A stretch of 64,000 nt of DNA from an uncultured delta proteobacterium (GTDB lineage Bacteria > Desulfobacterota > Binatia > HRBIN30 > BPIQ01). Of the stretch, positions 7,463-37,892 are shown piece after piece. Location of the stretch: NCBI GenBank assembly GCA_963761335.1, contig CAVXGR010000012.1, positions 576,001 through 640,000 of the forward strand. The letters are read 5' to 3'. The notes under the pieces are model-generated. The model was not told the DNA's origin and made no database searches. It saw nothing but the letters and a program-made list of their open reading frames with translations. Made by a program: the position numbers and the translations under genes. Every line of letters starts with the position of its first letter. Positions within the stretch are counted from its first letter, which is position 1.

Positions 7463-10400
7463 TTCACATCCCCCGGGCAGAGCCCCACCACCGAGAGGCA
7501 GGGAAGATGGCGGAAGCGGTGGCGGAACTTGATGTCGCCGCCGAAGGTGCCCGCCTGCGACTCGGTCTGGCTCTTCCACTGCCCCTGGACGGATATCGAC
7601 GGCGTCAGCTGGTACTCGAGGCCGGCGCTGTTGCGCGTCTCCGCACCGAACGTGCTTCCCACCGTGGCGCTCAGCTGCTCGGTGATGTCCTTGCCGATGG
7701 TCAGACGCGGCTCGAAGGAGCCGGTGGTCGGCGAGAAGGTGGGCTCGATCTGCAGCCGGTCCACCGGCAGCACCTGGGTGATGTCGCGGCTCAGCTGTCG
7801 GCCGTAGAGCGACGGCGCCAGAGAAAGGATGTCGGCGGCAGCGGCGCCGCCACCGGCGCGCTGCAGCTGGGCCGAGGTCTTGCCCAGAGTGAGCAGGGCG
7901 AAGACGTCGGTCTGCGTCAGGTTCGCGTCGTCAGAGCTGAGGACGACGCGAAAGTTCTGCATGGTGCCGACCACCTGCGCGGTGACGTCGTAATCCGTCT
8001 CCGCCGTCTGCACGGTGGCGGTGGCGGTGAAGTGCAGATCCGGGTTGATCTGCGGCTGGTTGTTGAAGTCGATCGTGCCCTCGATGAGCTCGAGCTGCTC
8101 GCGGCCGACGACCACCTGCCCGGAGAGCAGCTCGACGCGCCCGTCGAGCCGCGGCGCCGCGGCGGTGCCGAGAACCCGCAGGTCGACGCGGAACTCGGCG
8201 GTGGCTACCGGGGTGTCGACATAGACGCCATCGGTCGCCACCACGTGCAGGTTGAGACGGACGGTGGTGCCGCCCTTCTGCGTCGGCCGGCCGACCCGCT
8301 GCACCTGGCGGCGCAACGACGGCATCAGGTCCTGCAGGCCGATGTCGCGGCTGTAGACGGCGCTGAGAATGGTGATCTGCCCGTCCACGGTGAGGTTCGA
8401 CCAGCTCCCCGTGACCTTGCCGGTCCCGGAGAGCCGGTCCTCGAGATCTTCGAGAAAGCCGGTGCTGATATCGACGAACTGCCAGCTCAGATCCGGGCCG
8501 GTCGCCATGTCCACCCCGCCCTGCACCGAGAAGTCGCCGCCGCCGAGCTTGCCCTGGATGCCGGTGACCTCGATCTGGTTCTGGTGCAGCTGGAAGCTGC
8601 CGTTGGCGTCGGTCACGCCGAAGGGAAGCCCGAAGTCGATGGCGAGGTTCTGCAGGTTGCCGCCGCCGCTCAGCGACCAGGCGCCGCCGCTGCGGCGGAT
8701 GTTGGCGTCGACGTTGAGATGACCGCGGGCGGAGGTGATCACCTGGCCGGCGAGCTCGAGGATCGCCGCGTCGGTGTCGGCGGTAACGTTCACCTGCATC
8801 GGGCCGCCCAGCTCGACGTAGCCGCTCGCCTGCAGGCGGCCGAGAGCGCCGCCGAGCTGCAGAGAACCGATGTCGAAGCGGCCCTTGTGGCCGGTGATCA
8901 CCACGGGTTGCTGGGCGCTCAGCGCCAGGCCGGAGCGGCTGATCTCGAGCTGCGGCAGGCGCAGCTCCATGTCGAGGGAGGCGGTCGGCTCCGAGAGCCT
9001 GCCCTTGGCGGTGAGCGTTCCGCTGGTGCGGACGGCGAGATCGGCTTCGGGCGACAGGGCCGGACCGAGGTCGACGGTATCGAGGATGACTTCGAAGTCG
9101 TAGGGATAGCCGGCGGCGCTGCGCACCGTGCCGTCGGCGACGAGCTTCTGCGAGGGCGTGCCGATGTGCAGGCTCCAGCCCTGGGGCACCGACTGGGCCT
9201 TTGCGGTGACCTGGCCGATGTCGCGATTCTCGACCTTCACGTCCTGAAGGATTACCTGGGCCTCACCCGCGGGCTGGCGGAGGCTTCCGGTGATATTGGC
9301 CTGGACGACGGCGGTGCCCTCGAGGTTCTGCCCCATCTTCTGGATGAAGCCGAAGCCGTCGAGGGCCCAGGGCATCGACTGCGCCTGCAGCGACACCTGC
9401 TCGGTTCCGGTGCCATGCCCCTCGAGCGTGAGCGTCTCTCCCTCGCGGTGTTGGATCTGCGCGTCGACCTTCCAGCTCTTGCCGGTGACCTCCACGTCGG
9501 CGTGCACCGAGGAAAACCGCTCCGTGGCCAGCGCCAGCGGCTTGCCGTTCAGCTGGCCGCTGAGCTGCAGATTGCTCCATTCTCCCTGGGCGCTCGCCTG
9601 TGCGGTCAGCTCGCCCGACATGTACGGCAGGTCGAGACCCAGTCCGTTGGCCACCGTCCACATGGCCTCGAGGTCGACGTTCTGCACATCCACCTGCCAG
9701 GAGTTCTCCGCGCCGTTCTGCAGGGCGACGCGCCCGTTCACCGCCGCCCGCCCGCCCACGGCACGCACCTCGATCTGCTTGGCGACGAGATCTTTCTCCG
9801 TCGCCTCGAAGCCGCCGCTGACGGCGTCGATGCGCACCCCCTGAACCACCACGCCATTGGCGGCAATGTCGCCGCTGATCGCCGGCGAAGAAGTGGTGCC
9901 GCCGATGGCGGCGGTCAGACGCACGGAGCCACCCTGCAGGGTGGGCTCCAGGGGCCGGAGCACCGCGGTGTTGGGCACGGAGATCTCCACATGGCCGTCC
10001 AGAGACTGGTTCGCCCCGACCTGAACCTTCGCCTGGATCGCCTCCGCGCCGTTCAGCCGAACGCTGGCGTCGGCGCTGCCGCTGCCGCCGGCGAGGCTCG
10101 CCTCGGCGTGCGCCGCGACCTCGAGCCCGCTGCCCGCGTACGAGGCGCGGCGCACTCCCTGCAGAGCGGCATCGAAATTTCCCTGCTCGACGGCGAACGG
10201 CGAAATGGTGCCCGCCGCCGTCAGCTCGGCACTGCCGCTCCCCTCGAGATTGGCGACGCCGAGCCGCGGCCCGAGAGCGGCGAGGTCAATGCCGCTGACC
10301 TGGACCTTGGCGTCGAACGGATAGGCGCCCTCGATCGTCAGCGCCGCGTTCCCGGCGAGCTGCAGGCCCTCGCCGCGGACATCCAGGTCGGAGACCTGCA

Positions 10401-11310
10401 GATGCTTGTCGCCGTAGTCGAGATTGCCGGCGAGGAGGGTGCCGCGATAATCGTCGTAGCGCCAATCCCTGACGGCGACCTTCGCCTGCACCCGGGGCTC
10501 GAGGAGATCGCCGCGGAGCGTCCCGGAGACCGACAGCTGGCCGGCGACCGGGGCCTGCAGGCCGAGCAGATCGGCCACCTTGCCGAGGGCGACGTCGGCG
10601 TCGACGGCGTCCAGGTGCGGCGCCGTGGACTTGGCGTCGATCGAGCCGAGATCGCTGCGCAAGGTCAGCTTGTCGACGACCAGGCCCTTCTGATCGACGC
10701 CGCCCTGGAGGGCGAGCTTCTGGACGCGCACCTGGCGCGGCCCGAGAGAGACGTCGATGGCCTCGCTGTGCAGCTCCACGATGGCGCGCCCGGCCTGCGT
10801 CTGCGCCGTCAGCTCGGCTCCCGGCGCCTCGATGGTCATCGGCTCCTCTCCGGGCAGCACCACCTTCAGGTGGCCGACGTCGAAGGACGACACATCGATC
10901 GAGGGCAGCGGCAGGATCGACTCGATCCCCTCCTCCGGCTTCTCCTCCGGCTTCTGCTCCCCGGCCGGCCAGCGGGTCGCGTCGACGATCAGGTTGCCGA
11001 GGTGTCCGCTCACCACCGGCTGGCGGCGCGTCAGGCTCTCTCCGGCTCGAACCCTCAGATCGACGTCGGAGAGCTGCAGGCTGGGGCTCTCGGGCTTGCC
11101 GATGGTGAGCTGGTCGAGATGCGCCGTCGTCTGCAAGATGTCTAGATGGAGGCCGCGGATGGAGACGTCCTGATCGGTCGCCTGTGCCAGCACGCCCTCC
11201 AGGCGCTGGCGCCCGAGCTCGACCAACCACGGCAGACCCCAGAACCACGCGAGCACCACCAGGGCAGTGATCAGCAGCACCAGGCCGAGCAGAACTCGGC
11301 GCCAGGTCAC
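7459..11310 (-). CDS. tamB: TamB/AsmA-family protein (DUF490-like C-terminus)
   Basis: N-terminal TM anchor, long beta-rich repeats, NPDLHFTA and LTIGKDIT C-terminal pattern; adjacent to Omp85. Confidence 0.85.
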   Translation of the reverse strand: MTWRRVLLGLVLLITALVVLAWFWGLPWLVELGRQRLEGVLAQATDQDVSIRGLHLDILQTTAHLDQLTIGKPESPSLQLSDVDLRVRAGESLTRRQPVVSGHLGNLIVDATRWPAGEQKPEEKPEEGIESILPLPSIDVSSFDVGHLKVVLPGEEPMTIEAPGAELTAQTQAGRAIVELHSEAIDVSLGPRQVRVQKLALQGGVDQKGLVVDKLTLRSDLGSIDAKSTAPHLDAVDADVALGKVADLLGLQAPVAGQLSVSGTLRGDLLEPRVQAKVAVRDWRYDDYRGTLLAGNLDYGDKHLQVSDLDVRGEGLQLAGNAALTIEGAYPFDAKVQVSGIDLAALGPRLGVANLEGSGSAELTAAGTISPFAVEQGNFDAALQGVRRASYAGSGLEVAAHAEASLAGGSGSADASVRLNGAEAIQAKVQVGANQSLDGHVEISVPNTAVLRPLEPTLQGGSVRLTAAIGGTTSSPAISGDIAANGVVVQGVRIDAVSGGFEATEKDLVAKQIEVRAVGGRAAVNGRVALQNGAENSWQVDVQNVDLEAMWTVANGLGLDLPYMSGELTAQASAQGEWSNLQLSGQLNGKPLALATERFSSVHADVEVTGKSWKVDAQIQHREGETLTLEGHGTGTEQVSLQAQSMPWALDGFGFIQKMGQNLEGTAVVQANITGSLRQPAGEAQVILQDVKVENRDIGQVTAKAQSVPQGWSLHIGTPSQKLVADGTVRSAAGYPYDFEVILDTVDLGPALSPEADLAVRTSGTLTAKGRLSEPTASLDMELRLPQLEISRSGLALSAQQPVVITGHKGRFDIGSLQLGGALGRLQASGYVELGGPMQVNVTADTDAAILELAGQVITSARGHLNVDANIRRSGGAWSLSGGGNLQNLAIDFGLPFGVTDANGSFQLHQNQIEVTGIQGKLGGGDFSVQGGVDMATGPDLSWQFVDISTGFLEDLEDRLSGTGKVTGSWSNLTVDGQITILSAVYSRDIGLQDLMPSLRRQVQRVGRPTQKGGTTVRLNLHVVATDGVYVDTPVATAEFRVDLRVLGTAAAPRLDGRVELLSGQVVVGREQLELIEGTIDFNNQPQINPDLHFTATATVQTAETDYDVTAQVVGTMQNFRVVLSSDDANLTQTDVFALLTLGKTSAQLQRAGGGAAAADILSLAPSLYGRQLSRDITQVLPVDRLQIEPTFSPTTGSFEPRLTIGKDITEQLSATVGSTFGAETRNSAGLEYQLTPSISVQGQWKSQTESQAGTFGGDIKFRHRFRHLPCLSVVGLCPGDVK

Positions 11311-11453
11311 CTGGGTTCTCCGACCCGCATGTCAGTTTCCCATGACCGAACGGAAAGGCACCCCCTAGTACTATCCGGCGGCATTGGATGTGTTAAGACG
11401 GCGAGATTGAAGAAAGCAACGGCGATGGCGTCAATGTCTTCGAAGTCCAACCC

Positions 11454-12830
11454 ATGAGACGACCGGCGACTCTCTGCTCACTGCTGGCGGTGGCTTCCGC
11501 CGCACTTCTCTGCGGGCCGCCGCCGGTGCGCGCGGTATCGCCGCCGGAGTCGTTCGCGCCGATCGTGCGCGCCGCCGGCCCGGCGGTGGCCTACATCTTC
11601 ACCACACAGGCACGGCGGATGCGGCGCTTCGGCATGCCCGGGGATCCGTTCGACGATTTCTTCCAGCGATTTTTCGGGGACGAGATGCCGCAGGTGCGCC
11701 CGCAGCAGAGCCTCGGCTCGGGATTCATCATCAGCGCCGACGGCTACATCGTCACCAACGCCCACGTGATCGCCGATGCCGTCAGCATCCGTGTCCGCCT
11801 GCACGACAAGCGGGAGTACGAGGCGGAGCTGGTGGGCAGCGACGCCAAGACCGACGTGGCCTTGATCAAGGTCGACGGCACCCACCTGCCGACGGTGAAG
11901 CTCGGCCACTCCGCCGGCCTCGAGATCGGCGACTGGGTACTCGCCATCGGCAATCCCTTCGGCCTCGAGCAGACGGTGACCGCGGGAATCGTCAGCGCCA
12001 AGGGGCGGGTCATCGGCGCCGGCCCATACGACGACTTCATCCAGACGGACGCGTCGATCAATCCCGGCAACTCGGGTGGACCGCTGCTCGACTCCGACGG
12101 CGAGGTCGTCGGCATCAACAGCGCCATCTTCAGCCGCAGCGGCGGCAACATCGGCATCGGCTTCGCCATCCCCATCGACTTGGCGCAGCACGTGATCGCC
12201 CAGCTCCGCGAGCACGGCCGCGTCATCCGCGGCTGGCTCGGGCTCGAGACGCAGGACATCACTCCCGAGCTGGCGCGCAGCTTCGGGCTGCCGCAGGCCA
12301 GCGGCGCGCTGGTGGTGCAGGTGGCTCCGGGGGGCCCGGCGGGCGAGGCCGGAATGCGGCGCGGCGACGTGGTCATCGCCTACGCCGGAAAGCCGGTCGC
12401 CGACAGCCGCGGGCTCCGCAGCCTGATTGCCGACGCTCCCATCGACGAGCAGGTCACCCTGCGCATCGTGCGCGACGGCCGCCAGTACTCGGTGCGCGCC
12501 AAGGTGTCCGGCATTCCGGGGGAGGCGGCGCGCCAGACGCGCCGCTCCGGTGAAGGCGGATGGGGCTTCGAGGTGTCGGAGCTGACGCCGCTGCTGGCAC
12601 GGCGCGCCGGCATACCGCCCGGTGTGCGCGGAGTCATGGTCACCGGGGTGACCGAGGGCGGCTCGGCGGCGGCGGCCGGCGTCGCCGAAGGCGACGTGAT
12701 CCGCGAGGTGAACCGCCGTGCGGTGACCTCCGTGGCGCAGCTGCAAGCCGCCGTGCGCCACACCGGCGAGCAGCTTCTCCTGCTCATTCAGCGGGGTCGA
12801 GGCGCCGGGTTTCTGCTGCTGCAGAGATAG
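11454..12830 (+). CDS. degP: DegP/DegQ (Do) serine endoprotease with two PDZ domains
   Basis: Signal peptide; GSGFII, TNAHV, TDVAL, QTDASINPGNSGGPL. Confidence 0.95.
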   Translation: MRRPATLCSLLAVASAALLCGPPPVRAVSPPESFAPIVRAAGPAVAYIFTTQARRMRRFGMPGDPFDDFFQRFFGDEMPQVRPQQSLGSGFIISADGYIVTNAHVIADAVSIRVRLHDKREYEAELVGSDAKTDVALIKVDGTHLPTVKLGHSAGLEIGDWVLAIGNPFGLEQTVTAGIVSAKGRVIGAGPYDDFIQTDASINPGNSGGPLLDSDGEVVGINSAIFSRSGGNIGIGFAIPIDLAQHVIAQLREHGRVIRGWLGLETQDITPELARSFGLPQASGALVVQVAPGGPAGEAGMRRGDVVIAYAGKPVADSRGLRSLIADAPIDEQVTLRIVRDGRQYSVRAKVSGIPGEAARQTRRSGEGGWGFEVSELTPLLARRAGIPPGVRGVMVTGVTEGGSAAAAGVAEGDVIREVNRRAVTSVAQLQAAVRHTGEQLLLLIQRGRGAGFLLLQR

Positions 12831-13049
12831 GTGCGGGCCCGCCGACGGGACCGGGACCCTTGACCCTTCGCCGGGGGAATATTAATTCGGCGCGGAGCAC
12901 TTCAGTCGCTGGCGACCTCACCGCCCCGCGTTGAGTGCCGCAGTGGAGGCACCATCGTCCAGGCACATCACATAGGAAGCGGTCAGGGGTCGGAAGAGCA
13001 AGCGGGCGGCAGCGGCGCTCCGCGGCGCCACCGCCGCTGGGTTTCGCTC

Positions 13050-14048
13050 ATGGTCGTCGTCGGCCTGGGCGTGCTGGTGCTGCTCTTCGTGCTCGCCGAC
13101 ACCCGCGCCCTGCTGCGCACCATCGAGCAGATCAATCCGTGGCTGCTGATCCTCCCGGTCCTGGCCACCTTGGGCAGCTATCTGGCGATGTCGAAGTCGT
13201 ACCAGGGAATCGCCCACGCCGCCGACTGCCCGTTTCCCTTCTGGGAGATGCTCAAGATCAGCTTCGTGGCCAACTCGATGAACTACATGGTGGCCACCGG
13301 CGGCCTCAGCGGCTTCGCCGCGCGCCTCTACTTCTTCACCCGCCGCGGCATTTCCGGGAGCACCGCGACCTCGATCTCGCTGGCCCAGGGGTTCATCACC
13401 AACGTCACGCTGCTGCTCTTCATTCTGATCGGCTTCGGCTACCTCATCGCCTCGGCGCGGCTCTCGCCGGCGGCGCTGGTGACCACTTCGATCCTCCTCG
13501 GGCTCTGCGTCGCCGCCACCATCATCTGCATCGTCTTCCTCTTCCGCCGGCGCCTGCGCCGTCGTGTCATCTTCGTCCTCTCGCAGACCGCCGACCGACT
13601 GCTGCACCGCTTCCTGCCGCGTTACAAGCCGGCGCGCACGCGCATCTGGCGCTTCCAGCGCAACTTGAACCTCGGCATCGACTTCCTGCTCGACCGCCGC
13701 ACGCACATGATCGCGCCGACCATCTGGATCCTGATCGACTGGCTACTGACCATGGGCATTCTCGAGTTCGCCTTCTTGTGTGTCGGCTACCCGATCTCCT
13801 TCAGCGTGCTGATCATCGGCTTCGCCCTCGGCCTGACGCTGTCCTTGATATCGATCATCCCCGCCGGCCTCGGTGTCATGGAGGGCTCGATGGCGGCGGT
13901 GTTCACCAGCCTCGACGTCCCCTTCGAGACGGCCGTGGTCGCCGTGCTGATCTTCCGCGTCGCCTTCCACGTCATCCCCCTGGTGACCAGCGTGTTCTTC
14001 TTCCACGGCCTCTTCGTCGAGGGCCGCGCCCACAGCGGCGAGGGCTGA
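13050..14048 (+). CDS. Lysylphosphatidylglycerol synthase TM-domain / flippase-like (UPF0104) membrane protein
   Basis: Multi-TM; IPAGLGVMEG and VLIFR motifs; start uncertain because the frame is open upstream. Confidence 0.8.
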   Translation: MVVVGLGVLVLLFVLADTRALLRTIEQINPWLLILPVLATLGSYLAMSKSYQGIAHAADCPFPFWEMLKISFVANSMNYMVATGGLSGFAARLYFFTRRGISGSTATSISLAQGFITNVTLLLFILIGFGYLIASARLSPAALVTTSILLGLCVAATIICIVFLFRRRLRRRVIFVLSQTADRLLHRFLPRYKPARTRIWRFQRNLNLGIDFLLDRRTHMIAPTIWILIDWLLTMGILEFAFLCVGYPISFSVLIIGFALGLTLSLISIIPAGLGVMEGSMAAVFTSLDVPFETAVVAVLIFRVAFHVIPLVTSVFFFHGLFVEGRAHSGEG

Positions 14049-14063
14049 GGGGGCGAGGGTTTC

Positions 14064-14250
14064 GGGTGTTGAGGGGTGGGTGTTGAGGGGTGGGTGTTGA
14101 GGGGTTGCGGGGTTGGGGGGAATCGTGCTCGTGCTCGTAATCGCGGGATAACCCCCTCCGCCCCGCCGACGCGGCGGGACGCCGCGTCTACGCCGATCTG
14201 CTTCCCCGCTCGCCAACAGCCAACACCTCAATACCCAACACCTATCACCT
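14064..14250. repeat. Composite intergenic repeat: (GGGTGTTGAGGGGT)x3, hexamer tract, single GTAG REP, complementary CCAACAC tract
   Basis: 14064-14106 tandem; TCGTGCTCGTGCTCGTAATCG 14123-14143; CCGACGCGGCGGGACGCCGCGTCTAC 14166-14191; C/A tract 14213-14250. Confidence 0.8.
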
Positions 14251-14314
14251 TGACTTTTCACGAGAATCATTCAGACTGCGGGGCCAGCTGGGGTGGATGA
14301 GGATGAGGATCGGC

Positions 14315-15562
14315 ATGCGCAAGAGACTGGCGAGCTCGGCATTGGTCGTCGCGGTCGCCCTGCTGGTGCCGGCGCTGACCGTTGCGGCGGCGCCGGCGAC
14401 CCTGGGCAGGATCACCGCCAAGGCGGCGATCCTGATGAATCGGCACACCCATGAGGTGATCTGGCAGCGGAACGCCGATCTGCCGTTGCCGCCGGCGAGC
14501 ACCACCAAGGTGCTGACCACGCTCGTGGCCCTGCGCAGTGCCCACCTCGACGACGTTTTCACGGTGAGCGAGGAGGCGGCGCAAGCGCCGCCGTCCAAGG
14601 TGCATCTGCGGCCCGGATGGCGGCTGACGCTCGAGGACCTCGCCTACGCCATCCTGCTCAACTCCGCCAACGACGCCGCCGAGGTGGTGGCCGAGAACGT
14701 CGCCGGATCGATCCCGGCGTTCGCCCGCCGCATGATGCGTCAGGCGCGCCAGGTGGGCGCCGTGAACAGCTTCTTCGTCAACCCACACGGCCTTCCCGCC
14801 GCGGGCCACGTGTCCACCGCCCGCGACCTGGCGTTGATCTTCGACGAGGCGCTCCAGGAGCCCGAGTTTCGCAGGATCGTCTCGACCCAGCGCATGGTCA
14901 TCGAGCCGGAACGCGGATTGCGGCGACCGATCCGCCTGCACAATCACAACCGCCTGCTGGACCGCTACAAGGTGCCGGTGGTGGGCAAGACGGGATGGAC
15001 GATCGCCGCCAAGAAGTGCTTCGTCGGCGCCGCCCTGCCCGACACGGGGCCCGAGATCCTGGTCGCCGTTCTCGGCTCGAAGGATCTGTGGGGCGACGTG
15101 ACCAAGCTGCTGAACTACGGACTTTCCGGCGATCGTTTCCCCGAGCCGCCCGACCTGCAGATGGCGCAAGCAGACGCCGATGCGGTCCCCGAGCCGCCGC
15201 CGGTCGGCGCCGGAGACAGCGAGGAGCTCAGCCCGGCGCCGCCGCGGCGCGCGCACCGACACGCGCATCGGCCGGCGCTGCGGAGCGCTCCTGCGTCGCC
15301 GGCGTCAGAGAACGGCTCGCTGCAGAGCTACGCCGTGCAGCTGGCCACATTCGAGAGCCCCGATCGCGCCCGCGAGCTGGTCTCGGCGGCAGAGCGCAAG
15401 GGCTACAAGGCCCGCATCCGCCGCATCGCCCGCTCCAACCGCACCATGTACCGCGTCACCATGGGCGATTTCGCCAGTCACGGCGCCGCCCGTTCCGCTG
15501 CGGCGCGCATGCGCCACGAGTACGAAGACCTCCGCCCGCTGGTGGTCGCCCCCTCGACGTAA
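14315..15562 (+). CDS. D-alanyl-D-alanine carboxypeptidase (S11) with C-terminal SPOR domain
   Basis: PASTTK (SxxK), SAND (SxN), NPHGL, GKTG; YAVQLATF...YRV SPOR pattern; GAGGA upstream of ATG 14315. Confidence 0.92.
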   Translation: MRKRLASSALVVAVALLVPALTVAAAPATLGRITAKAAILMNRHTHEVIWQRNADLPLPPASTTKVLTTLVALRSAHLDDVFTVSEEAAQAPPSKVHLRPGWRLTLEDLAYAILLNSANDAAEVVAENVAGSIPAFARRMMRQARQVGAVNSFFVNPHGLPAAGHVSTARDLALIFDEALQEPEFRRIVSTQRMVIEPERGLRRPIRLHNHNRLLDRYKVPVVGKTGWTIAAKKCFVGAALPDTGPEILVAVLGSKDLWGDVTKLLNYGLSGDRFPEPPDLQMAQADADAVPEPPPVGAGDSEELSPAPPRRAHRHAHRPALRSAPASPASENGSLQSYAVQLATFESPDRARELVSAAERKGYKARIRRIARSNRTMYRVTMGDFASHGAARSAAARMRHEYEDLRPLVVAPST

Positions 15563-15619
15563 GCGCGGTCGGTGACTCGGTGACCGAGGAACCGAGCCAC
15601 TGAGACACAGTACCGCGCC

Positions 15620-16897
15620 TCACTCCACAGCGGCGCGGATGAGGTGAACGAGCTGGATGTTCTCGCTGTGTCCGGTCAGGCGCGCCGTGATGGCGCCGCG
15701 GATCGGGCGGCCGAGGAGATAGAAGTCGCCCATGATGTCGAGGATCTTGTGGCGCACGAACTCGTCGGGGAAACGCAGGGTGGTGTTCACCACCCGCTCG
15801 TCGTCGACGAGAATGCAGTTGTCGAGGCGGCCGCCGCTGGCGAGGCCGAGAGCGGCCATGGCCTTCATGTCGCGCAGGAAGCCGAAGGTGCGCGCCGGAG
15901 CGATCTGCTCGCGGAAGGACTCCGGTCCGTCGTAGTCGTAGCGCAGGCGCTGCTCGCCCACCGGCGGCGGATAGCGCAGCGTGTAATCGATGCTGAAGCC
16001 ATCGGCCGGATCGATGCGGATCATCTCCCCCGACTCCTCGCCGACGCACAGGGGCTCGCGGATGACGATCTCTTCCAGCGGCGCCACCTGCTCTTCGATG
16101 CCGGCGCTCTCGATCAGCTGGCAGAACTCAATCGCCGAGCCGTCCATGATCGGCACCTCGCCCTGCACCTTCACCAGCAGGTTGGTGATGCGGTAGGCGT
16201 GCAGAGTCGCCAGCAGGTGCTCGACGGTCTTGGCACTGACGCCGTTGCGGTGCAGTCCGGTGGCGTAGCCGGTCGAGTCGACGAAGTCGACGCGGGCGGG
16301 AACGGTGTCGGCGGCCGCCAGGCTGCCGAAGACGATGCCGCTGCCCGCAGGCATCGGCTGCAGGATCAGGCCGGTCTTCACCCCCGAGTGCAGCCCGTGA
16401 CCACTGGCGACGACGCTGCGCCGCAGCGTCTTCTCGCGAAGCGCGGGCAAGGCCACGGTGGAGCCGGGCGCCGCGCCGCCGCCCTCCGGAGCGGCGCAGC
16501 CGTCCTCGGCATCCTCGCCGCGCGTGTGCCGCCGGGCATGGTGCTCGAGGGCGCGGTTGACGATGCGCAGCAGGCCGTCGAGGGGAAACGGCTTCTCGAT
16601 GAAATCGAAGGCGCCGAGCTTGGTGGCGGTCACCGCGGTCTCGATGTTGCCGTGCCCGGAGATCATCACCACTTCCGGGCCGGCGTTCTCGGCCTTCAGC
16701 TCGCGCAGCAGCTGGATGCCGTCGAGCTCCGGCATCCAGATGTCGAGCAGAACCAGCTCGGGGTGCTCGCGGCGCACGATCTCGCGCGCCACCATCCCGT
16801 CCTCCGCCTCGATGACGCGCAGCCCCTCGTCGGCCAGCACACCCCGCAGGGAAGCGCGAATGTCGGCTTCGTCATCCACCACCAGAACCGTCGGCAT
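15620..16897 (-). CDS. lpxC: Response-regulator receiver domain fused to LpxC (UDP-3-O-acyl-GlcNAc deacetylase)
   Basis: aa 1-120 REC (VVDDE, LLD52IWMP, ISGHGNIETAV, EK102PF); aa ~154-425 LpxC (GHGLHSG, TVEHLLA, EVPIMDGSA, IAPARTFGF, HKILDIMGD, TGH); SD GAAGGGAG. Confidence 0.93.
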   Translation of the reverse strand: MPTVLVVDDEADIRASLRGVLADEGLRVIEAEDGMVAREIVRREHPELVLLDIWMPELDGIQLLRELKAENAGPEVVMISGHGNIETAVTATKLGAFDFIEKPFPLDGLLRIVNRALEHHARRHTRGEDAEDGCAAPEGGGAAPGSTVALPALREKTLRRSVVASGHGLHSGVKTGLILQPMPAGSGIVFGSLAAADTVPARVDFVDSTGYATGLHRNGVSAKTVEHLLATLHAYRITNLLVKVQGEVPIMDGSAIEFCQLIESAGIEEQVAPLEEIVIREPLCVGEESGEMIRIDPADGFSIDYTLRYPPPVGEQRLRYDYDGPESFREQIAPARTFGFLRDMKAMAALGLASGGRLDNCILVDDERVVNTTLRFPDEFVRHKILDIMGDFYLLGRPIRGAITARLTGHSENIQLVHLIRAAVE

Positions 16898-16929
16898 TGG
16901 ATCTCCCTTCTGTCGCCGCTACGTCCGCG

Positions 16930-19176
16930 TCACGCGCGAATGGCGTGCAAGGCGTTCTCGCGACGCCGCAGCGGCAGCTCGATGATGAAGCGGCTGCCGC
17001 GCGGGGCGTTGTCGCGCACGCGGAGGTAGGCCTGGTGATCCGCAGCAATTGCGGAGACGATCGCCAGCCCCAGTCCGGTGCCATCCTTCTTCGTCGAAAC
17101 ATACGGCTCGAACAGCCGTCCCCTCACCTCCGGCGGAATGCCACAGCCGTTGTCGGCCACCTCGAGCTGTACCGTGCCGATGCGCTCCCGGTACGAGGTC
17201 GAGATCTCGATGCGCGGCCCGCCGTCCTCCCCGGCACCCTGGCACGCCGCCACGGCATTGTCGAGAAGGTTGATCACCGCCCGCTTGATCGCCTCCCGGT
17301 CGATCTCCACCAGGGGCAGATCCGGCTCCGGAGTGAAGATGAAGCCGATGTCGCGGTGCCCCTCGCGGAAGAGGACCAGCGCCTCGTCGATGACCGCGTT
17401 GAGATCGTGGGGCGCCATGTCCGCGGGCGGCAGCCGGGCGAAGCTGGCGAACTCGTTGACCAGGCGCTTGAGCCCCTCCACCTGGCGGATGATGGTGCGG
17501 GTGCACTCGTCGAGCACCGAGCCGTCGCTGCCGTTGAGGATGCTCGCATAGCGTCTGCGCAGGCGTTGCGCCGACAGCTGAATCGGGGTGAGAGGATTCT
17601 TGATCTCGTGGGCGATCCGCCGCGCCACCTCGCGCCAGGCCTCCATGCGCTCGACGCGCAGCATGTGACTGACGTCGTCGAAGAAGACCATGACACCGAG
17701 GCGTGCCCCGGCCTCGTCGCGCAGCACGGCGACGGTCACCAGAGCCGTGATGATGCGCTGACCGCCGCTGAGCTTCACCTGGCGTTCCACTTCGTCCTGC
17801 TCGCCGCGCGCCACCACGCCGATCATCTCGCCGACATCGCGCAGATCGTTGCGCGCCAAGAGGCTCTTCCAGTCGGCGCCGCGCGCGGCGCTTCCCTCGA
17901 CGCCCAGCATCTTCTCGGCGGCGCGGTTGATGGTGCTGATCTCTCCCCCCTGGCCGATGGAGACGACGCCGGCGGTGACGTTGGCGAGCACCGCCTCGAT
18001 ATAGCGGCGCCCATCCTCGAGCTCGCCGTGAATCTGCTTCAGCTCGGCGGTCATCTGATTGAACGAGATCACCACCGTGGCCAGCTCCTCGTCGGCCCCC
18101 GCCTCGATACGATGGTCCCAGTTGCCCTGGGCGACCTCGCGGGTGCCCTCGGAGAGCCGTTGCAGAGGCACGGTGATGCCCTTGGCGACGCGAAAGCCAA
18201 ACCAGGTGGCGGCAAAGATCACCACCAGGGTGATCAGCGTCAAGGTGAGGATGTAGCTGTTCTTCATCGGCTGCCGCAGCACGCCGAAGTGACGGAACTC
18301 CTGGTACGACTGGGCGATGTCGCGCGCCCGGCTGCTGACGCTCCGGCCGATGACATAGTCGACCAGAACGCTGCCCAGCAGCGCCCCGTCGGCGCCGCGC
18401 ACCGGCACCGCGGCGCGCACGATGTCGCTGCCCCCCGCCGGGTGGGTGACCACCATCTTCTCGCCCCGGTGCAGCTCGGCGAGCTCGTCGGCGGCGGGCG
18501 TGATGCGCAGGGCGCTCGTCTGCGGGTCCTCGGCGACGGCGACGATCTTGCCGTCGGGGGAGACGGCCTCGACGCGCGCCAGGTTGTAGGCGAGACAGGC
18601 GTTCTCGAGGCGGCGCTGCAGGGCCATGTGGTGCGGCTCGTTCCACAGCTGCGGCTCGGCGATGCCGTCGCCGATCTGCTCGCCGAAGTGAAGGGCGCTG
18701 TTGCCCGCCTGCTGATAGATGACCTGGGCGATGTCGAGGGCGCTGTTGAGGGCACTCTCGACGCGCACACTGAACCAGCTGTCGAAGGCGCGCGCCAGGA
18801 ACCCCTGCGAGACCATGAAAAGCAGGGTGGTGGGAATGAGAGTCAGGCCCACGAAGGCCACCACCAGCCGCGTGCGCAGGCGCGAGCCGAGGATTCCCCG
18901 CCGCCGCTCCAGCGCCAACTTGGCGAAGTTGCGGATGACCAGGAAGACGATGAGGACGAGGAGGATGAGATTGAGGTTGATGAGCAGGAAGAAGACGAGA
19001 TTGCCCGGCATCGAGCCGCTGTCGCCGAAACGCGGCATCCACGTCTCGACCACGGCAAAGAAGCCGAAGACGACGGCGGCCAGGAAGATCAGGAAGATCT
19101 CCCAGCGACGGCGGCGGCGCTCATCGGCCGGGATGCCGGGGGCCTCGCCGCTCAAGGTGAGTAGCCACCGCCACAT
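16930..19176 (-). CDS. ntrY: NtrY-like membrane sensor histidine kinase (TMs, periplasmic domain, HAMP, PAS, HisKA, HATPase)
   Basis: GSRLRTRLV, AWREVARRIAHEIKNPLTPIQLSAQRL H-box, NLLDNA, DNGCG, FEPYVSTK, GTGLGLAIV. Confidence 0.9.
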   Translation of the reverse strand: MWRWLLTLSGEAPGIPADERRRRRWEIFLIFLAAVVFGFFAVVETWMPRFGDSGSMPGNLVFFLLINLNLILLVLIVFLVIRNFAKLALERRRGILGSRLRTRLVVAFVGLTLIPTTLLFMVSQGFLARAFDSWFSVRVESALNSALDIAQVIYQQAGNSALHFGEQIGDGIAEPQLWNEPHHMALQRRLENACLAYNLARVEAVSPDGKIVAVAEDPQTSALRITPAADELAELHRGEKMVVTHPAGGSDIVRAAVPVRGADGALLGSVLVDYVIGRSVSSRARDIAQSYQEFRHFGVLRQPMKNSYILTLTLITLVVIFAATWFGFRVAKGITVPLQRLSEGTREVAQGNWDHRIEAGADEELATVVISFNQMTAELKQIHGELEDGRRYIEAVLANVTAGVVSIGQGGEISTINRAAEKMLGVEGSAARGADWKSLLARNDLRDVGEMIGVVARGEQDEVERQVKLSGGQRIITALVTVAVLRDEAGARLGVMVFFDDVSHMLRVERMEAWREVARRIAHEIKNPLTPIQLSAQRLRRRYASILNGSDGSVLDECTRTIIRQVEGLKRLVNEFASFARLPPADMAPHDLNAVIDEALVLFREGHRDIGFIFTPEPDLPLVEIDREAIKRAVINLLDNAVAACQGAGEDGGPRIEISTSYRERIGTVQLEVADNGCGIPPEVRGRLFEPYVSTKKDGTGLGLAIVSAIAADHQAYLRVRDNAPRGSRFIIELPLRRRENALHAIRA

Positions 19177-19185
19177 GAGTGCCCT

Positions 19186-19214
19186 ATTCTACGGAAGCCG
19201 GTGGGGACAGGCAA
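19186..19214 (-). promoter_or_regulatory. Putative promoter of the kinase/REC-LpxC operon (TTGCCT-N17-TAGAAT)
   Basis: -35 at 19214-19209, -10 at 19191-19186, ATG 9 nt downstream. Confidence 0.6.
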
Positions 19215-19275
19215 CTTTTCCCTCTCATGTCGCGTCGCGCCTGCTGACCTCGCGCCGGAAAAGTAGCCTGTCCCC
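19203..19275. repeat. Inverted-repeat element with 19-bp arms (GGGGACAGGCAACTTTTCC ... GGAAAAGTAGCCTGTCCCC)
   Basis: Arms 19203-19221 and 19257-19275, one mismatch. Confidence 0.9.
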
Positions 19276-19283
19276 AGCCGCGG

Positions 19284-20045
19284 TCAGGCCTGCGGGCGGC
19301 TGGGGAAGAGGCGTACCCGGCGCGCCGACGGCGGCGCCCCGCGCTCCATGGCCGCCACCATCTCGCGGGCGGCCTGGGCGGGGTCGCGCGCCTCGAGGAT
19401 GGAACGGCCGACCACCAGGTAATCGGCGCCGGCACGCACCGCCTCCTCGGGGGTCATGACGCGCTTCTGATCGTCGTGCTCCTCGGAGGATGGCCGCACT
19501 CCCGGGGTGACGATGACGAAGGGACGGCCGCACTCGCGGCGGATCTGGCGGACCTCCTTCGGCGAGGCGACGACGCCGTCCATCTCGGCCTCCTTGGCGA
19601 GCCGCGCCAGACGGACCACCTGGCTCTCCACCTTGCCCGATATGCCGACGCGTTTCAGGTCGGCGCGATTGAGGCTGGTCAGCACCGTCACCGCGAGGAT
19701 CTTCGGCCGGCGCAGGCCCTCGTTGCGGCAGACCTTGCGCACCTCGCTGACGGTGCGCTCCATCATCTCGAGGCTGCCGGAGGCGTGCACGTCGAACATG
19801 CGCACCCCGAGGCGGGCCGCCTCGACACCGGCCTTGGCGACGGTGCGCGGGATGTCGTGGAACTTGAGGTCGAGAAACACCTCGCCGCCGCGCTCGCGGA
19901 TGGTGCGCACGATGGCCGGTCCGCTGCGCAGGAAGAGCTGCTTGCCGACCTTGAACATGCCCACCTCGTTCATCAGCCGGGAGACGAAGCTCAGCGCCTC
20001 GCGCGGCGAGTCGACGTCGAGGGCGAAGATCAGGCGTGACCGCAT
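19284..20045 (-). CDS. pyrF: Orotidine-5'-phosphate decarboxylase
   Basis: LIFALD, FLDLKFHDIPRTV, AVTVLTS, VTPGVRP, DDQKR, VVGRSI. Confidence 0.96.
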   Translation of the reverse strand: MRSRLIFALDVDSPREALSFVSRLMNEVGMFKVGKQLFLRSGPAIVRTIRERGGEVFLDLKFHDIPRTVAKAGVEAARLGVRMFDVHASGSLEMMERTVSEVRKVCRNEGLRRPKILAVTVLTSLNRADLKRVGISGKVESQVVRLARLAKEAEMDGVVASPKEVRQIRRECGRPFVIVTPGVRPSSEEHDDQKRVMTPEEAVRAGADYLVVGRSILEARDPAQAAREMVAAMERGAPPSARRVRLFPSRPQA

Positions 20046-20071
20046 GCCGCCGCGCCCGCTGAAAGGCCAGC

Positions 20072-21799
20072 TCAAGGGCGCTCCGTCGCCGCGGCGCGCA
20101 CCAGGGACACCGTCTGCTCGACGGCGTCGGCGAGCGCGATCTCGGTCGCCTTGGCCTGGCGCCGCGGCTTCCACTCGATGTTGCCGCGCTCCAGGGCCTT
20201 GGGCCCGACCGTCAGCCGCAGCGGTAGGCCGAGCAGATCGGCGTCCTTGAACTTGACCCCGGGGCGCTCCTCGCGATCGTCGAGGAGGACCTCGACCCCG
20301 GCGGCCTGGAGGTCCGCATAGAGCTTCTCCGCCACCGTCCGCTGCCGCTCGTCGGTCCAGCTCACCGGCAGCAGGTGCACGTGCGCGGGCGCCAGCGACA
20401 TCGGCCAGATGATGCCGCTGTCGTCGTGGTGCTGCTCGATGGCGGCGGCGGCGGTACGGGTGATGCCGATGCCGTAGCTGCCCATGATCATCGGCCGGGC
20501 CTCTCCGCTGGCGTCGAGGAAGGTGGCTCCCATGGGGACGCTGTACTTGGTGCCGAGATAGAAGATGTTTCCCACCTCGATCCCGCGGTGCTCCTCGAGC
20601 ACGCCGTCCTCGCACCGCGGGCACAGGTCGCCGGCGCGCGCCACGCGAAGATCGGCGAAATGCAGATCGGACAGATCGCGCTCCTGGTCGATGCCCACCA
20701 GATGATGATCCGCCTGGTTGGCGCCGCTGACGCCGCCGCGCAGGCCGCGCAGTCCGGCGTCGGCGAGCACCTGCACGTCGAGGCCGATGGGGCCGGCAAA
20801 GCCGACCGGGGCGCCGCTGGCGCGCTCGATGGCCGCCTCGTCGGCAAGCGCCACCCACTGCACCCCGAGAGCGTTCTTCAGCTTGATCTCGCTGAGCTGG
20901 TGATCGCCGCGCACCAGGGCGGCCACCGTGTCGCCGGCGTCGGTGACGTAGATGAGGGTCTTGATGAAGCGCTCGGGAGGCAGGCCGAGAAAGGACGACA
21001 CCTCCTCGATGGTGCGCTGCCCGGGCGTGTGCACCTTCTCGCGCCCGGCGGCGCTGCCGGGCGGCGCCGGCGCCGGCGCCGTGCGCGCCTCCGCCTTCTC
21101 GACGTTGGCGGCGTAGCTACAGCGGCTGCAGCTGACGATGGCGTCTTCACCGGAGGCCGCCAGCACCTGGAACTCGTGGGCGCGTGTGCCACCGATGGCG
21201 CCGGTGTCCGACTCCACCTGACGCGAGTCGAGGCCGCAGCGGCGGAAGATGCGCGCGTAGGTCTGCGCCATGTTCTGGTACTCGCGCTCGCAGTCCTCGG
21301 CGTCGACGTGGAAGGAGTAGGCGTCCTTCATGATGAACTCGCGACCGCGCATCAGGCCGAAGCGCGGCCGCACCTCGTCGCGGAACTTCACCTGGATCTG
21401 GTAGAGGTTGAGCGGCAGCTCGCGATAGGAGCGGATCTCGCGACGCACGATGTCGGTGACCACCTCCTCGTGCGTCGGCCCGAAGCAGAAGTCGCGATCG
21501 TGGCGGTCGCGGATGCGCAGGAGCTCTTTGCCGTACTTGTCCCAGCGGCCGCTCTCCTGCCAGAGCTCGGCCGGACAGACGGCCGGCATGAGGATCTCCT
21601 GCGAGCCGGCGCGGTCCATCTCCTCGCGGACGATGGACTCCACCTTGCGCACCACGCGCAGGCCCAGCGGCAGAAAATCGTAGATGCCGCGCGCCACTTG
21701 GCGGATCATGCCGGCGCGCAGCATGAGCTTGTGACTGACCACCTCGGCGTCCGAGGGATCCTCCTTCAGCGTCGGGATCAGTGTCTGGCGATAACGCAC
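20072..21799 (-). CDS. proS: Proline--tRNA ligase (bacterial type with editing domain)
   Basis: SHKLMLRAG, GPTHEE, FRDEVRPRFGLMRGREF, GIEVGNIF, MGSYGIG. Confidence 0.97.
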   Translation of the reverse strand: MRYRQTLIPTLKEDPSDAEVVSHKLMLRAGMIRQVARGIYDFLPLGLRVVRKVESIVREEMDRAGSQEILMPAVCPAELWQESGRWDKYGKELLRIRDRHDRDFCFGPTHEEVVTDIVRREIRSYRELPLNLYQIQVKFRDEVRPRFGLMRGREFIMKDAYSFHVDAEDCEREYQNMAQTYARIFRRCGLDSRQVESDTGAIGGTRAHEFQVLAASGEDAIVSCSRCSYAANVEKAEARTAPAPAPPGSAAGREKVHTPGQRTIEEVSSFLGLPPERFIKTLIYVTDAGDTVAALVRGDHQLSEIKLKNALGVQWVALADEAAIERASGAPVGFAGPIGLDVQVLADAGLRGLRGGVSGANQADHHLVGIDQERDLSDLHFADLRVARAGDLCPRCEDGVLEEHRGIEVGNIFYLGTKYSVPMGATFLDASGEARPMIMGSYGIGITRTAAAAIEQHHDDSGIIWPMSLAPAHVHLLPVSWTDERQRTVAEKLYADLQAAGVEVLLDDREERPGVKFKDADLLGLPLRLTVGPKALERGNIEWKPRRQAKATEIALADAVEQTVSLVRAAATERP

Positions 21800-22796: not shown

Positions 22797-22905
22797 TCGT
22801 GCTTCGAGCGCGAGCGGGATCCCCACCCCGAGGCCCGCGCTTTTTCTTTGGGCGCGCATTTGGTATAGGAACGGTCCGTGGCTCGCTTCCGGGCCGCGGT
22901 TTTTT

Positions 22906-25303
<2,398 letters not shown>

Positions 25304-25342
25304 CGGCGCCTGCGGCGCCGCAGGCCGGCTCGTCCGTTGGCC

Positions 25343-26176
25343 ATGACCCGCAACACCCGCATCGTCTCCATTGCCGGCGTCGCCGTCGGCGGCGGCAATC
25401 CGCTCGCCTTCATCGGCGGGCCGTGCATCATCGAGAGCCGCGACAGCGCCCTGCGCCACGCCGAGGCCATGCGCCGCATCACCGCCAGCGCCGGCGTGCC
25501 GTTCATCTTCAAGTCGTCCTTCGACAAGGCGAACCGCACCTCGCGCAGCTCGTACCGCGGTCCCGGCATCGACGCCGGGCTGGCGATCCTCGCCGAGGTG
25601 CGCCGCGAGATCGGCGTGCCGGTGCTGACCGACGTCCACGAGGTGGCCCAGGTGGGCCCGGCGGCGGCGGTCGTCGACGTGCTGCAGACGCCCGCCTTCC
25701 TCTGCCGGCAGACGGACCTGCTCGAGGCGTGCGCCGCCAGCGGCAAGCCGGTGAACGTCAAGAAGGGACAGTTCCTGGCGCCCTGGGACATGGGGCCGGT
25801 GGTGGAGAAGATGGCCGCCGGGGGCAATCGCGCCCTGCTGGTGACCGAGCGCGGCGTCTCCTTCGGCTACAACAACCTGGTCACCGATCTGCGCGCCCTG
25901 CCGATTCTCGCCGAGATCGGCTATCCGGTGGTCTACGACGCCGGTCACAGCGTGCAGCTCCCCGGGGGGCAGGGATCGCGCTCCGGGGGACAGCGGCAGT
26001 TCATCCGGCCGCTGGCGCGCGCCGCCGTCGCCACCGGCGTCGACGCCGTTTTCCTCGAGGTGCACGAAGATCCGGACCGCGCTCTCAGCGACGGACCAAA
26101 CTCCTATCCGCTCGGCGAGCTGGCGCCGCTCCTCGGCGAGCTGAAGAGAGTCGATGAGCTCCTCCGCCAGCTCTGA
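25343..26176 (+). CDS. kdsA: KDO 8-phosphate synthase
   Basis: GPCIIE, KSSFDKANRTS, PAFLCRQTD, KKGQF, ERGVSFGY, ALSDG. Confidence 0.97.
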   Translation: MTRNTRIVSIAGVAVGGGNPLAFIGGPCIIESRDSALRHAEAMRRITASAGVPFIFKSSFDKANRTSRSSYRGPGIDAGLAILAEVRREIGVPVLTDVHEVAQVGPAAAVVDVLQTPAFLCRQTDLLEACAASGKPVNVKKGQFLAPWDMGPVVEKMAAGGNRALLVTERGVSFGYNNLVTDLRALPILAEIGYPVVYDAGHSVQLPGGQGSRSGGQRQFIRPLARAAVATGVDAVFLEVHEDPDRALSDGPNSYPLGELAPLLGELKRVDELLRQL

Positions 26177-27218
26177 AGGCCGCCGCCGGCCGCGCCGCGC
26201 CCGGCAGCGGCCCGCCAAGCCGCGGCGGCCGGCGATGGCGCCGCCCGCCGGGAACGTCGAGGGCGATCTGGCGCGTGCCCGCCGCGTCCTGCGCATCGAA
26301 GCGGGCGCCATCCGCGAGCTGGCGCGGCGCCTCGACGACCGCTTCAGCCGCGCGGTCGACCTGCTGGTGCAGTGCCGCGGCAAGGTCGTGGTCACCGGCA
26401 TGGGAAAGTCCGGACAGATCTGCCGCAAGCTGGCCTCGACCTTTGCCAGCACCGGCACACCGGCCTTCTTCCTACACGCCGGCGAGGGCATGCACGGCGA
26501 CGCCGGCATGATCATGAAGGAGGACGTGGTGCTCGCCGTCTCCAACAGCGGCGAGACCGAGGTCGTACAGCTGCTGCCGCTGATCAAGCGCCTCGAGCTG
26601 CAGCTGATCGCGCTCACCGGGGTTCCCGCCTCCACCCTGGGGCGCGCCGCCGACGTCGTGCTCGACACCCGCGTCGCCGAGGAGGCCTGCCCTCTCGGTT
26701 TGGCGCCGACGGCGAGCACCACGGCGACGCTCGCCCTCGGCGACGCCTTGGCCGTGGCCGCCCTGGAGCGCCGCAACTTCAATGCCGACGACTTCGCGGT
26801 CCTGCACCGCGGCGGCAGCCTTGGCCGCCGCCTGCTCAAGGTCGACGAGGTCATCCACACCGGCGCCCAGCTGCCGCTGGTGGCGGCGGAGGCGCCGATC
26901 GAGGCGGTGCTGGCGGAGATGACGGAGAAGCGGCTGGGCATCACCGGGGTCACCGACGGCGACGGCGCTCTGGTGGGCGTGATCACCGACGGCGATCTGC
27001 GCCGCGGCCTGCAGAGCTCCGCGGACCTGCGCGGCCACTCGGCGCGGACGCTGATGACGACGCGCCCGAAGACCATCGAGGCCGGGGCCCTGGCCGAGCG
27101 GGCTCTGGCCACCATGGAGCGCCACAGCATCACCTCGCTCTTCGTCCTCGAGAGCAACGGGCAACGGCCGCTCGGCATCGTCCATCTTCACGACCTGCTG
27201 AAAGCCGGCGTCGTCTAG
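26154..27218 (+). CDS. kdsD: KpsF/GutQ arabinose-5-phosphate isomerase (SIS plus CBS pair)
   Basis: GMGKSG, ASTGTP, HGD, SNSGET, EACPLGLAPTAST, TDGDLRR, HLHDLL; start may be ATG 26235. Confidence 0.95.
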   Translation: MSSSASSEGRRRPRRARQRPAKPRRPAMAPPAGNVEGDLARARRVLRIEAGAIRELARRLDDRFSRAVDLLVQCRGKVVVTGMGKSGQICRKLASTFASTGTPAFFLHAGEGMHGDAGMIMKEDVVLAVSNSGETEVVQLLPLIKRLELQLIALTGVPASTLGRAADVVLDTRVAEEACPLGLAPTASTTATLALGDALAVAALERRNFNADDFAVLHRGGSLGRRLLKVDEVIHTGAQLPLVAAEAPIEAVLAEMTEKRLGITGVTDGDGALVGVITDGDLRRGLQSSADLRGHSARTLMTTRPKTIEAGALAERALATMERHSITSLFVLESNGQRPLGIVHLHDLLKAGVV

Positions 27219-27228
27219 TCGGGGGCCG

Positions 27229-28245: not shown

Positions 28246-28302
28246 GAGAGGGAGGCGTTTCCGCGAACACCGGTGCCATCAGGCACCAAGGGAGCAATTG
28301 TC

Positions 28303-28881
28303 ATGGCGGCCGATCCGAGAATGATCCTGCTGATGAGCTATTATCGCGATGCGGAGATCCGCGGCGCCTCGCTCCTGCTGCGCCTGATCTCCCATCTCCC
28401 CGACGGCGAGTCGCAGACCAAGCTCTCGCTCCACCTCGCCGACGAGACCCGGCACGCGTGGCTGTGGACCAAGAGGATCAACGATCTCGGCGCCTCGCCG
28501 CTTCGCGTCGAGGACGGCTATCAGTCGCGCATCGGCCTGAAGACCATCCCGCGCTCCGTGGTCGACATCCTCGCCCTCACCGTGGTCGTCGAGCAGCGCT
28601 CGCTCGATCGCTACATCGAGCACGCCGCCCGGCCGAACATCGACCCCGAGACCCTGGCGGTGCTGCGCGAGGTCTCGCAGGACGAGAAGTGGCACATCGC
28701 CTGGATCAAGAACAAGATGTACGAGATCGCCGCCGCCGAGAGCGGCCCGGAAGCCGGTGCCCAGCGCGCCGACGCCGCCATCGCCAAGTACGCGGAGATC
28801 GATCGCCAGGTGTACGCCTCCCTGCTGGAGAAGGAGCGCCAGACCTTCGGCGGGCATCTGGCTCACGAGACGCCGTCCTGA
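28303..28881 (+). CDS. Ferritin-like di-iron domain protein
   Basis: E...DETRH...VVE...DEKWH pattern; SD AAGGGAG. Confidence 0.8.
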   Translation: MAADPRMILLMSYYRDAEIRGASLLLRLISHLPDGESQTKLSLHLADETRHAWLWTKRINDLGASPLRVEDGYQSRIGLKTIPRSVVDILALTVVVEQRSLDRYIEHAARPNIDPETLAVLREVSQDEKWHIAWIKNKMYEIAAAESGPEAGAQRADAAIAKYAEIDRQVYASLLEKERQTFGGHLAHETPS

Positions 28882-35839: not shown

Positions 35840-35841
35840 GG

Positions 35842-36366: not shown

Positions 36367-36404
36367 AGTCGCCCCCTGGTTCGGTAAGTTGATCGGTGGC
36401 CCGC

Positions 36405-37886: not shown

Positions 37887-37892
37887 ATCGAC

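Follow-up and report, generated by a model that had tools for sequence, protein, structure and literature searches.

Can a two-component system act directly on LpxC, the enzyme that commits the cell to lipid A synthesis? The question is raised by a 64,000-nucleotide stretch of DNA from an uncultured bacterium of the Binatia (assembly GCA_963761335.1, contig CAVXGR010000012.1, positions 576,001 to 640,000; hereafter the window), in which the gene of an NtrY-like sensor kinase is followed by a gene joining a receiver domain and LpxC in a single chain. We found that this receiver groups with those of NtrX and that the fusion recurs in relatives. With a probability of roughly 0.55, as we judge from sequence comparisons, NtrY would set the phosphorylation of Asp52 in the receiver and thereby gate LpxC activity within the chain.

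An NtrX-type receiver in one chain with LpxC

On the minus strand of the window, the gene order is pyrF, a 748-aa kinase, a 32-bp gap and a 425-aa open reading frame (ORF). A sequence-only reading had described an NtrY-like kinase 32 bp ahead of a receiver-LpxC gene on the same strand; both ORFs lie where it had placed them (Table 1), and the motifs LDIWMP (with Asp52) and ISGHGNIETAV in the receiver and AWREVARRIAHEIKNPLTPIQLS (with His523) in the kinase were all found. Pfam gave the kinase the complete architecture NtrY_N-HAMP-PAS-HisKA-HATPase (HATPase_c), with intact motifs and the H-box W-x-x-VARRIAHEIKNPLTPIQLS. In the 425-aa protein, Pfam identified Response_reg at residues 4-113 (104 bits) and LpxC at residues 156-420 (281 bits) and, as had also been claimed, no AAA+ or helix-turn-helix (HTH) family.

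The LpxC part scored 280.6 bits with the profile PF03331 (cut-off 27) and 253.8 with TIGR00325 (cut-off 187.25). Its alignment to solved LpxC covers every metal and catalytic position, and the zinc-ligand and catalytic signature is present (E-H, TFGF, H-K-x-x-D-x-x-x-D and the catalytic His), these residues having what we take to be their usual roles in LpxC. The predicted model of this part superposes on solved LpxC with a root-mean-square deviation of 1.6-2.1 and a target template-modelling score of 0.84-0.95. It is a predicted enzyme that keeps the residues for deacetylase activity.

Regarding the receiver, its best solved matches were PDB 4d6x and 5m7n, presumably both Brucella NtrX, and NtrX was the top NCBIfam receiver match of the fusion, with 131 bits for the NtrX profile NF051870 (cut-off 600). 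The sequence-only reading had traced the receiver to NtrX, and our tree agrees: in a quick tree of 131 rows and 116 columns, all 63 fused receivers fell into one clade of 89 rows with 20 ntrY-linked NtrX and six NtrX-like receivers (Shimodaira-Hasegawa-like approximate likelihood ratio test, 97), leaving outside five alphaproteobacterial NtrC and all 33 other receivers sampled from the genome. By descent, the fusion is an NtrX, yet with AAA+ and HTH absent it is not a transcription-factor NtrX. An intact phospho-pocket and an apparently intact enzyme in one chain is the architecture of a response regulator with enzymatic output. LpxC is likewise one domain of a fusion in LpxC-FabZ (NF009667; 192.6 bits for our protein, cut-off 465), where a fatty-acid enzyme follows as the C-terminal partner.

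By tblastn, the whole genome (G000, 99.07% complete) has a single LpxC and a single N-terminal region of NtrY, and its sole NtrY_N match is the 748-aa kinase. Among 92 receiver-bearing ORFs, 15 of them with AAA+, the signatures LDIW or SGHG-x-IETAV occur in the fusion only. Neither a separate ntrX nor a second lpxC was found in the genome by tblastn and by the screen of receiver-bearing ORFs, which leaves the fusion as the single LpxC and the single NtrX-type receiver of the cell. The genome also encodes lpxB, lpxK, two lpxA-type genes (the LpxA C-terminal domain PF13720 matches at G000 C16:215739-215984 and C17:343991-344230) and rpoN, and sigma54 itself has therefore not been lost.

Distribution and history of the fusion

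Both Pfam families were present in all 120 best homologues listed (119 with 65-78% identity, besides the query; named records among them are mostly Ca. Binatia), which argues against an assembly artefact or chance. A chimeric assembly was likewise rejected, given that the fusion recurs in homologues and in relatives' loci and that the spacing is conserved in class genomes. In a class sample of 121 genomes at least 90% complete, lpxC and ntrY were each detected in 119. Of the 117 genomes with both genes, 110 carry ntrY directly upstream on the same strand, and the remaining seven have the two genes on different contigs. The ntrY-lpxC match spacing in those 110 is 1,668-1,904 nt (1,755 in the window), which gives space for a kinase core and a receiver and is too small for AAA+; the fused receiver was seen directly in ten of the class genomes and deduced from the spacing in the others.

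Residues D8, D9, D52, K102 and S/T80 are kept in 61/61 fused receivers. All 42 receiver-LpxC (REC-LpxC) proteins retain the catalytic residues, with F338 in 38. Mean column conservation is 0.76 in the receiver, 0.24 in the linker, which varies in sequence and in length (25-64 residues), and 0.77 in LpxC. The DHp consensus of the kinase is identical in fused and unfused lineages, whichever partner follows.

In a phylum sample of 151 genomes, 145 of them with lpxC, we fetched the 35 loci with frames of at least 417 aa and five short ones. Fusions account for 34 of the 35 long-frame loci: nine are ntrY-linked (four REC-LpxC and five REC-AAA+-LpxC) and 25 are orphans, away from ntrY (19 and six, respectively). 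Named records add Nitrospinota (long form) and entries labelled Bdellovibrionales and Deltaproteobacteria (short form), labels that can be wrong. Three fusions are labelled as an archaeon, Clostridia and Margulisiibacteriota (L041, L050 and L035); since they nest among other fusions, mis-binning or mislabelling is likely. In two fusion genes (L040:804-2092 and G222:C1:757996-758728) the LpxC part is split over two frames, possibly by assembly error. Frames of 1,007-1,423 aa at lpxC in G076, G110 and G143 were considered as kinase-REC-LpxC triple fusions and rejected: they read through GC-rich sequence upstream, and NtrY lies in a different frame.

Relatives show three states: separate lpxC-ntrY-ntrX, whole NtrX fused to LpxC, and REC-LpxC. 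Among 100 genomes with unfused lpxC and ntrY, lpxC lies at most 4 kb upstream of ntrY in 31; NtrX follows ntrY in 17 of the 19 lpxC-ntrY loci fetched, in 16 with GAFTGA or GSFTGA. At two loci (L149 and L150) unfused lpxC abuts ntrY-ntrX directly and has no sigma54 site upstream, and in an acidobacterial locus (L057:6001-9636) ntrX and ntrY are convergent instead of tandem. In the 19 long forms, the 272-348 aa between receiver and LpxC can be aligned with NtrX over its AAA+ and, in many cases, its HTH. None of them has GAFTGA, the DE of Walker B or the arginine-finger motif, which are present in 11, 14 and 14 of 15 NtrX controls, respectively; a Walker A-like GxxGxGK, judged by eye, is retained in 18. 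HTH loss is graded in the Nitrospinota long forms (L058, L059, L063, L064, L066-L068): the domain is kept in L066 and L067 and gone in L063, L064 and L068.

When 50 genomes were searched with an NtrX-type receiver profile, built partly from sequences of the same genomes, the fused receiver ranked first in 40/40 fused genomes; weaker second matches, by score alone, appeared in nine of these and in four of the ten unfused genomes. Orphan fusions occur in 25 genomes, three of them outside the fetched set. In 21/21 fetched loci from such genomes ntrY persists and is followed by no receiver gene (two of these loci end 0.3 and 1.3 kb past ntrY), and likewise in G034. Fusion and free NtrX appear mutually exclusive in the genomes searched. 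G034 carries both kinds of lpxC, an unfused one, which has a perfect sigma54 site and lies 5' of an ntrY without ntrX, and a divergent orphan REC-LpxC (L144, L189), possibly a transfer or a transitional state.

A quick LpxC-only tree separated 62 fused from 36 unfused sequences (support 99); with midpoint root, the long forms fell inside the short ones. For a joint REC+LpxC tree we used 62 rows, leaving out 20 near-duplicate, truncated or long-branch loci. Fused (43) and separate (19) proteins were split at 100/100, short forms were monophyletic in 0/200 bootstrap trees, and the rooted tree favoured at least two AAA+ losses. The simplest reading of these sequences would be one fusion of whole NtrX followed by at least one loss of AAA+. 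The sequence-only reading held that lpxC had replaced the output of ntrX. Three computational checks did not refute that reading: the receiver groups with NtrX, the adjacency to ntrY is conserved, and a separate ntrX is absent from the genome. The transcription-factor output is indeed gone and LpxC stands in the chain; a direct swap is the less likely course, because in relatives the complete NtrX, its AAA+ decayed, is joined to LpxC. The likely history is that of a regulator fused to its own target, its middle lost afterwards.

Promoters changed along with the proteins. We searched up to 350 nt upstream for the sigma54 consensus with at most one mismatch. Sites were found at 22/47 unfused lpxC genes (reverse strand, 0; shuffle mean, 0.2), and at 0/33 orphan fusions and 0/25 ntrY-fusion operons; by family, the counts are 14/31 unfused vs 0/17 fused. 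The unfused set is non-random (top Pfam scorers plus ntrY neighbours) and its kin are not independent; it originally had 48 rows, of which L040 was dropped as a piece of a split fusion, with no site. Upstream of the ntrY of the window such a strict site is absent, and one match with two mismatches is at chance level. Sigma70-like sites were enriched at orphan fusions (17/33; shuffle mean 6.7, max 13), marginal at ntrY-fusion operons (8/25; mean 3.2, max 7) and not enriched at unfused lpxC (17/47; mean 12.5, max 21).

The unfused state has a published counterpart. In Desulfovibrio, lpxC is the single target of DVU2934, a REC-AAA-DNA-binding-domain protein named ntrX whose kinase is DVU2931; the orthologous operon of S. 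fumaroxidans has lpxC immediately upstream (PMC3333781). A D. alaskensis kinase mutant showed raised levels of lpxC alone, lpxC there has a sigma54 site, and the kinase lowers regulator activity in the medium used (PMC4045070). GAFTGA is present in DVU2934 (PMC4641369), and the available text of bioRxiv 2021.11.05.467447 mentions the Desulfovibrio operon only. DVU2931/DVU2934 and Dde_3000/Dde_3003 are likewise a kinase and an NtrX-named receiver dedicated to LpxC (PMC3333781, PMC4045070), and the Syntrophobacter order lpxC-ntrY-ntrX (PMC3333781) matches that of our 17 unfused loci. However, the Desulfovibrio output is sigma54-dependent transcription through an intact REC-AAA+-HTH, whereas here AAA+, HTH and sigma54 site are gone and the receiver sits inside the enzyme chain. 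The comparison suggests that the lpxC-activating transcriptional pathway of relatives was rewired onto the enzyme itself. The ancestor would have had NtrX as an intact sigma54 activator and lpxC often with a sigma54 promoter, as in unfused relatives; whole NtrX would then have joined LpxC once, its AAA+ and HTH decaying before being deleted, with the sigma54 site lost.

Predicted phosphorylation of Asp52 and its possible effect on LpxC

In the mechanism that we propose, NtrY would respond to an envelope cue as a membrane-bound kinase/phosphatase, phosphorylating and dephosphorylating Asp52 of the fusion. We regard this phosphotransfer as very probable. The receiver would pack on its own LpxC domain so that its phospho-state gates the deacetylase, and lipid A flux could be set without new transcription. 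As for the sign, we lean slightly towards phosphorylation turning LpxC on, with NtrY acting as a net phosphatase when lipopolysaccharide (LPS) is sufficient, and hold this weakly because the sign is borrowed from Desulfovibrio. In its widest form, the proposal is that His-to-Asp phosphorylation of LpxC controls lipid A synthesis in the whole class and several neighbour lineages, with NtrY as envelope sensor and a single origin, in which a sigma54 activator was joined to the protein encoded by its sole target gene and lost the domains for transcription; we give this about an even chance.

Structure prediction is consistent with such packing. AlphaFold2 gave predicted template-modelling scores (pTM) of 0.83 for the window protein and 0.90 for a homologue at 47% identity, with a disordered linker in both (predicted local distance difference test, pLDDT, below 50 at residues 129-149 of the window protein). 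These pTM values exceed the ceiling of about 0.65, the LpxC share of the chain, expected for independent domains, which points to a fixed domain arrangement. When receiver (1-128) and LpxC (150-425) were given as separate chains, the complex score was 0.00, with the controls not folded, and we count this neither for nor against such packing. We identified 22 LpxC positions that are conserved in fused enzymes and seldom found in unfused ones; many lie in the first half, including S161, V163, T175, G176, H233, Y235, K243 and C259; they may mark a docking face or merely shared descent.

Several points weigh against gating within the chain and the history behind it. pTM reports model confidence alone, and our reading of it was made without coordinates or predicted aligned errors. 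The fusion-specific LpxC residues may reflect plain clade history, and in the receiver R115 alone is specific to fusions, which speaks only weakly for a new interface. Given the variable linkers and the long-form spacers of ~270-350 residues, one docking geometry need not hold family-wide. A single short-form clade is not rejected by the approximately unbiased test (p = 0.13), so the number of AAA+ losses is not fixed. Strict sigma54 sites are missing from 25/47 unfused lpxC genes, and DVU2934 is linked to the fusion clade by its published name (Table S1) and gene order rather than by sequence comparison.

The main rival accepts phosphorylation of Asp52 by NtrY and lets it determine how much LpxC there is or where it sits: the receiver would mark the protein for degradation in a switchable way, dimerise it, or tether it to NtrY at the inner membrane. 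A 2025 review describes proteolysis as a control of LpxC in E. coli and membrane localisation as a possible one in Neisseria (PMC12444477). The control by FtsH/LapB/YejM in E. coli, and that in other Proteobacteria, acts at the same protein-level point (PMC12444477), but the E. coli route depends on a C-terminal degron and on proteases and adaptors that are proteins of their own. The fusion has three residues past the aligned end, compared to 28 in E. coli-type LpxC, so that the usual degron is missing. A tether would be compatible with the variable linker and the tolerated, decayed AAA+ spacer, and the receiver surface is almost as in NtrX. On the other hand, the high pTM of two distant homologues indicates a fixed arrangement of the domains, and no adaptor or protease gene is linked at the window locus. 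We consider this rival unlikely, at somewhat better than one chance in four.

Quite improbable is a passive fusion, with a receiver that survives as a relic or helps folding, a constitutive LpxC and an NtrY retained to serve another partner. In its favour, two other domains of that ancestor, AAA+ and HTH, decayed within the chain, but the phospho-pocket stayed invariant throughout that decay, the receiver is conserved like the enzyme, and ntrY persists in the class genomes without another NtrX-type partner. Least probable is a reverse flow or sink, where the level or ligand state of LpxC tunes NtrY or drains phosphate and the true output is another regulator reached by cross-talk: the many other receivers and the second profile matches would allow it, but no other receiver of the genome has NtrX signatures or falls inside the NtrX clade, and lpxC alone is the published target of the unfused Desulfovibrio pathway.

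Gating by phosphorylation within the chain would have partial precedents. In enzymatic-output response regulators such as CheB, PleD/WspR, REC-HD-GYP and REC-PP2C, a receiver is likewise joined to an enzyme and phosphorylation can act without transcription. Their outputs are signalling enzymes, whereas here it is an essential, committed biosynthetic enzyme, derived from the regulator's own target gene. Alphaproteobacterial NtrY, for which haem-PAS redox sensing is known, shares its kinase architecture and H-box with the window pair. By contrast, alphaproteobacterial NtrX binds DNA and regulates many genes, with LpxC as a separate protein (PMC7240162); loss of NtrYX in Rhodobacter raised lpxC mRNA 8.8-fold and LPS ~2-fold, an indirect effect with no binding site found there (PMC7240162). 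The 2025 review treats NtrYX as transcriptional control only, with fusion, receiver, response regulator and Desulfovibrio unmentioned in its main text, and its Outlook states that very little is known of LpxC control outside Proteobacteria (PMC12444477). Our literature search by titles and abstracts returned no paper on a receiver-LpxC fusion; closed journals or preprint supplements might hold one, and censuses of response-regulator architectures, mostly in subscription journals, lay largely outside that search. A link between Aquifex NtrC4 and an lpxC promoter was likewise not found in the literature searched and plays no part in our argument. Enzymatic outputs of receivers and the control of lpxC by NtrYX were each known before; the combination of both in one chain is undescribed in the literature searched.

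LPS synthesis is controlled mainly at LpxC, by the known routes of proteolysis, partner proteins and transcription. Direct phospho-control through a built-in receiver would, if true, add a new route, and a switch from transcription to allostery would be visible as living intermediates. LpxC control would then be the ancestral job of NtrYX, and the fusion a one-step readout for the NtrY signal; purified proteins could address both this signal and allosteric gating. With its intermediates and the matching loss of the sigma54 promoter, the family is a clear example of fusion between a regulator and its target.

Gene layout around the fusion

Table 1. Features of the ntrY and fusion genes in the window.
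Feature	Position	Strand	Remarks
ntrY, 748-aa sensor histidine kinase	16930..19176	-	Pfam NtrY_N membrane/periplasmic region, HAMP, PAS, HisKA, HATPase_c
Predicted phospho-acceptor His523 codon of NtrY (AHEIKNP, E-x-x-N motif)	17608..17610	-	Role presumed from family
Fusion gene: NtrX-type receiver, linker and LpxC, 425 aa	15620..16897	-	Sole lpxC of the genome
Receiver domain, residues 1-120	16538..16897	-	D8, D9, D52, S80, F99, K102 intact
Asp52 codon, predicted phosphorylation site	16742..16744	-	Invariant in 61/61 fused receivers
Variable linker, residues 121-152	16442..16537	-	Occupies the AAA+/HTH place of long forms; low conservation, low pLDDT
LpxC domain, residues 153-425	15620..16441	-	E226, H227, T337, F338, H383, K384, D387, D391, H410; no long C-terminal tail
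Shine-Dalgarno-like AAGGGAG in the intergenic gap 16898-16929	16903..16909	-	Read from sequence
Sigma70-like site TTGCCT-17-TAGAAT just 5' of ntrY	19186..19214	-	Consensus match alone; 1 found vs 0.2 expected

The convergent neighbour of the fusion is a D,D-carboxypeptidase gene with a SPOR domain, whose end lies 57 bp from the fusion stop; no intrinsic terminator was found between them or elsewhere in 15300-20400. This gene belongs to a group 3' of the fusion (7459-15562) with tamB-like (minus strand), degP-like and lysylphosphatidylglycerol-synthase membrane protein genes. At 22870-29834 there are kdsB-pyrG-kdsA-kdsD-type genes and two lipid A acyltransferases. The second of these, a 530-aa ORF at 28242-29834 (plus strand), matches Pfam at residues 244-521 only, and its first 240 residues, with no family, indicate a wrong start or an extra domain. 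Further on, 33557-39778 holds lptC-lptA-lptB-rpoN-hprK-rapZ; with these kds, acyltransferase and lpt genes, the fusion is located in an LPS-rich region.

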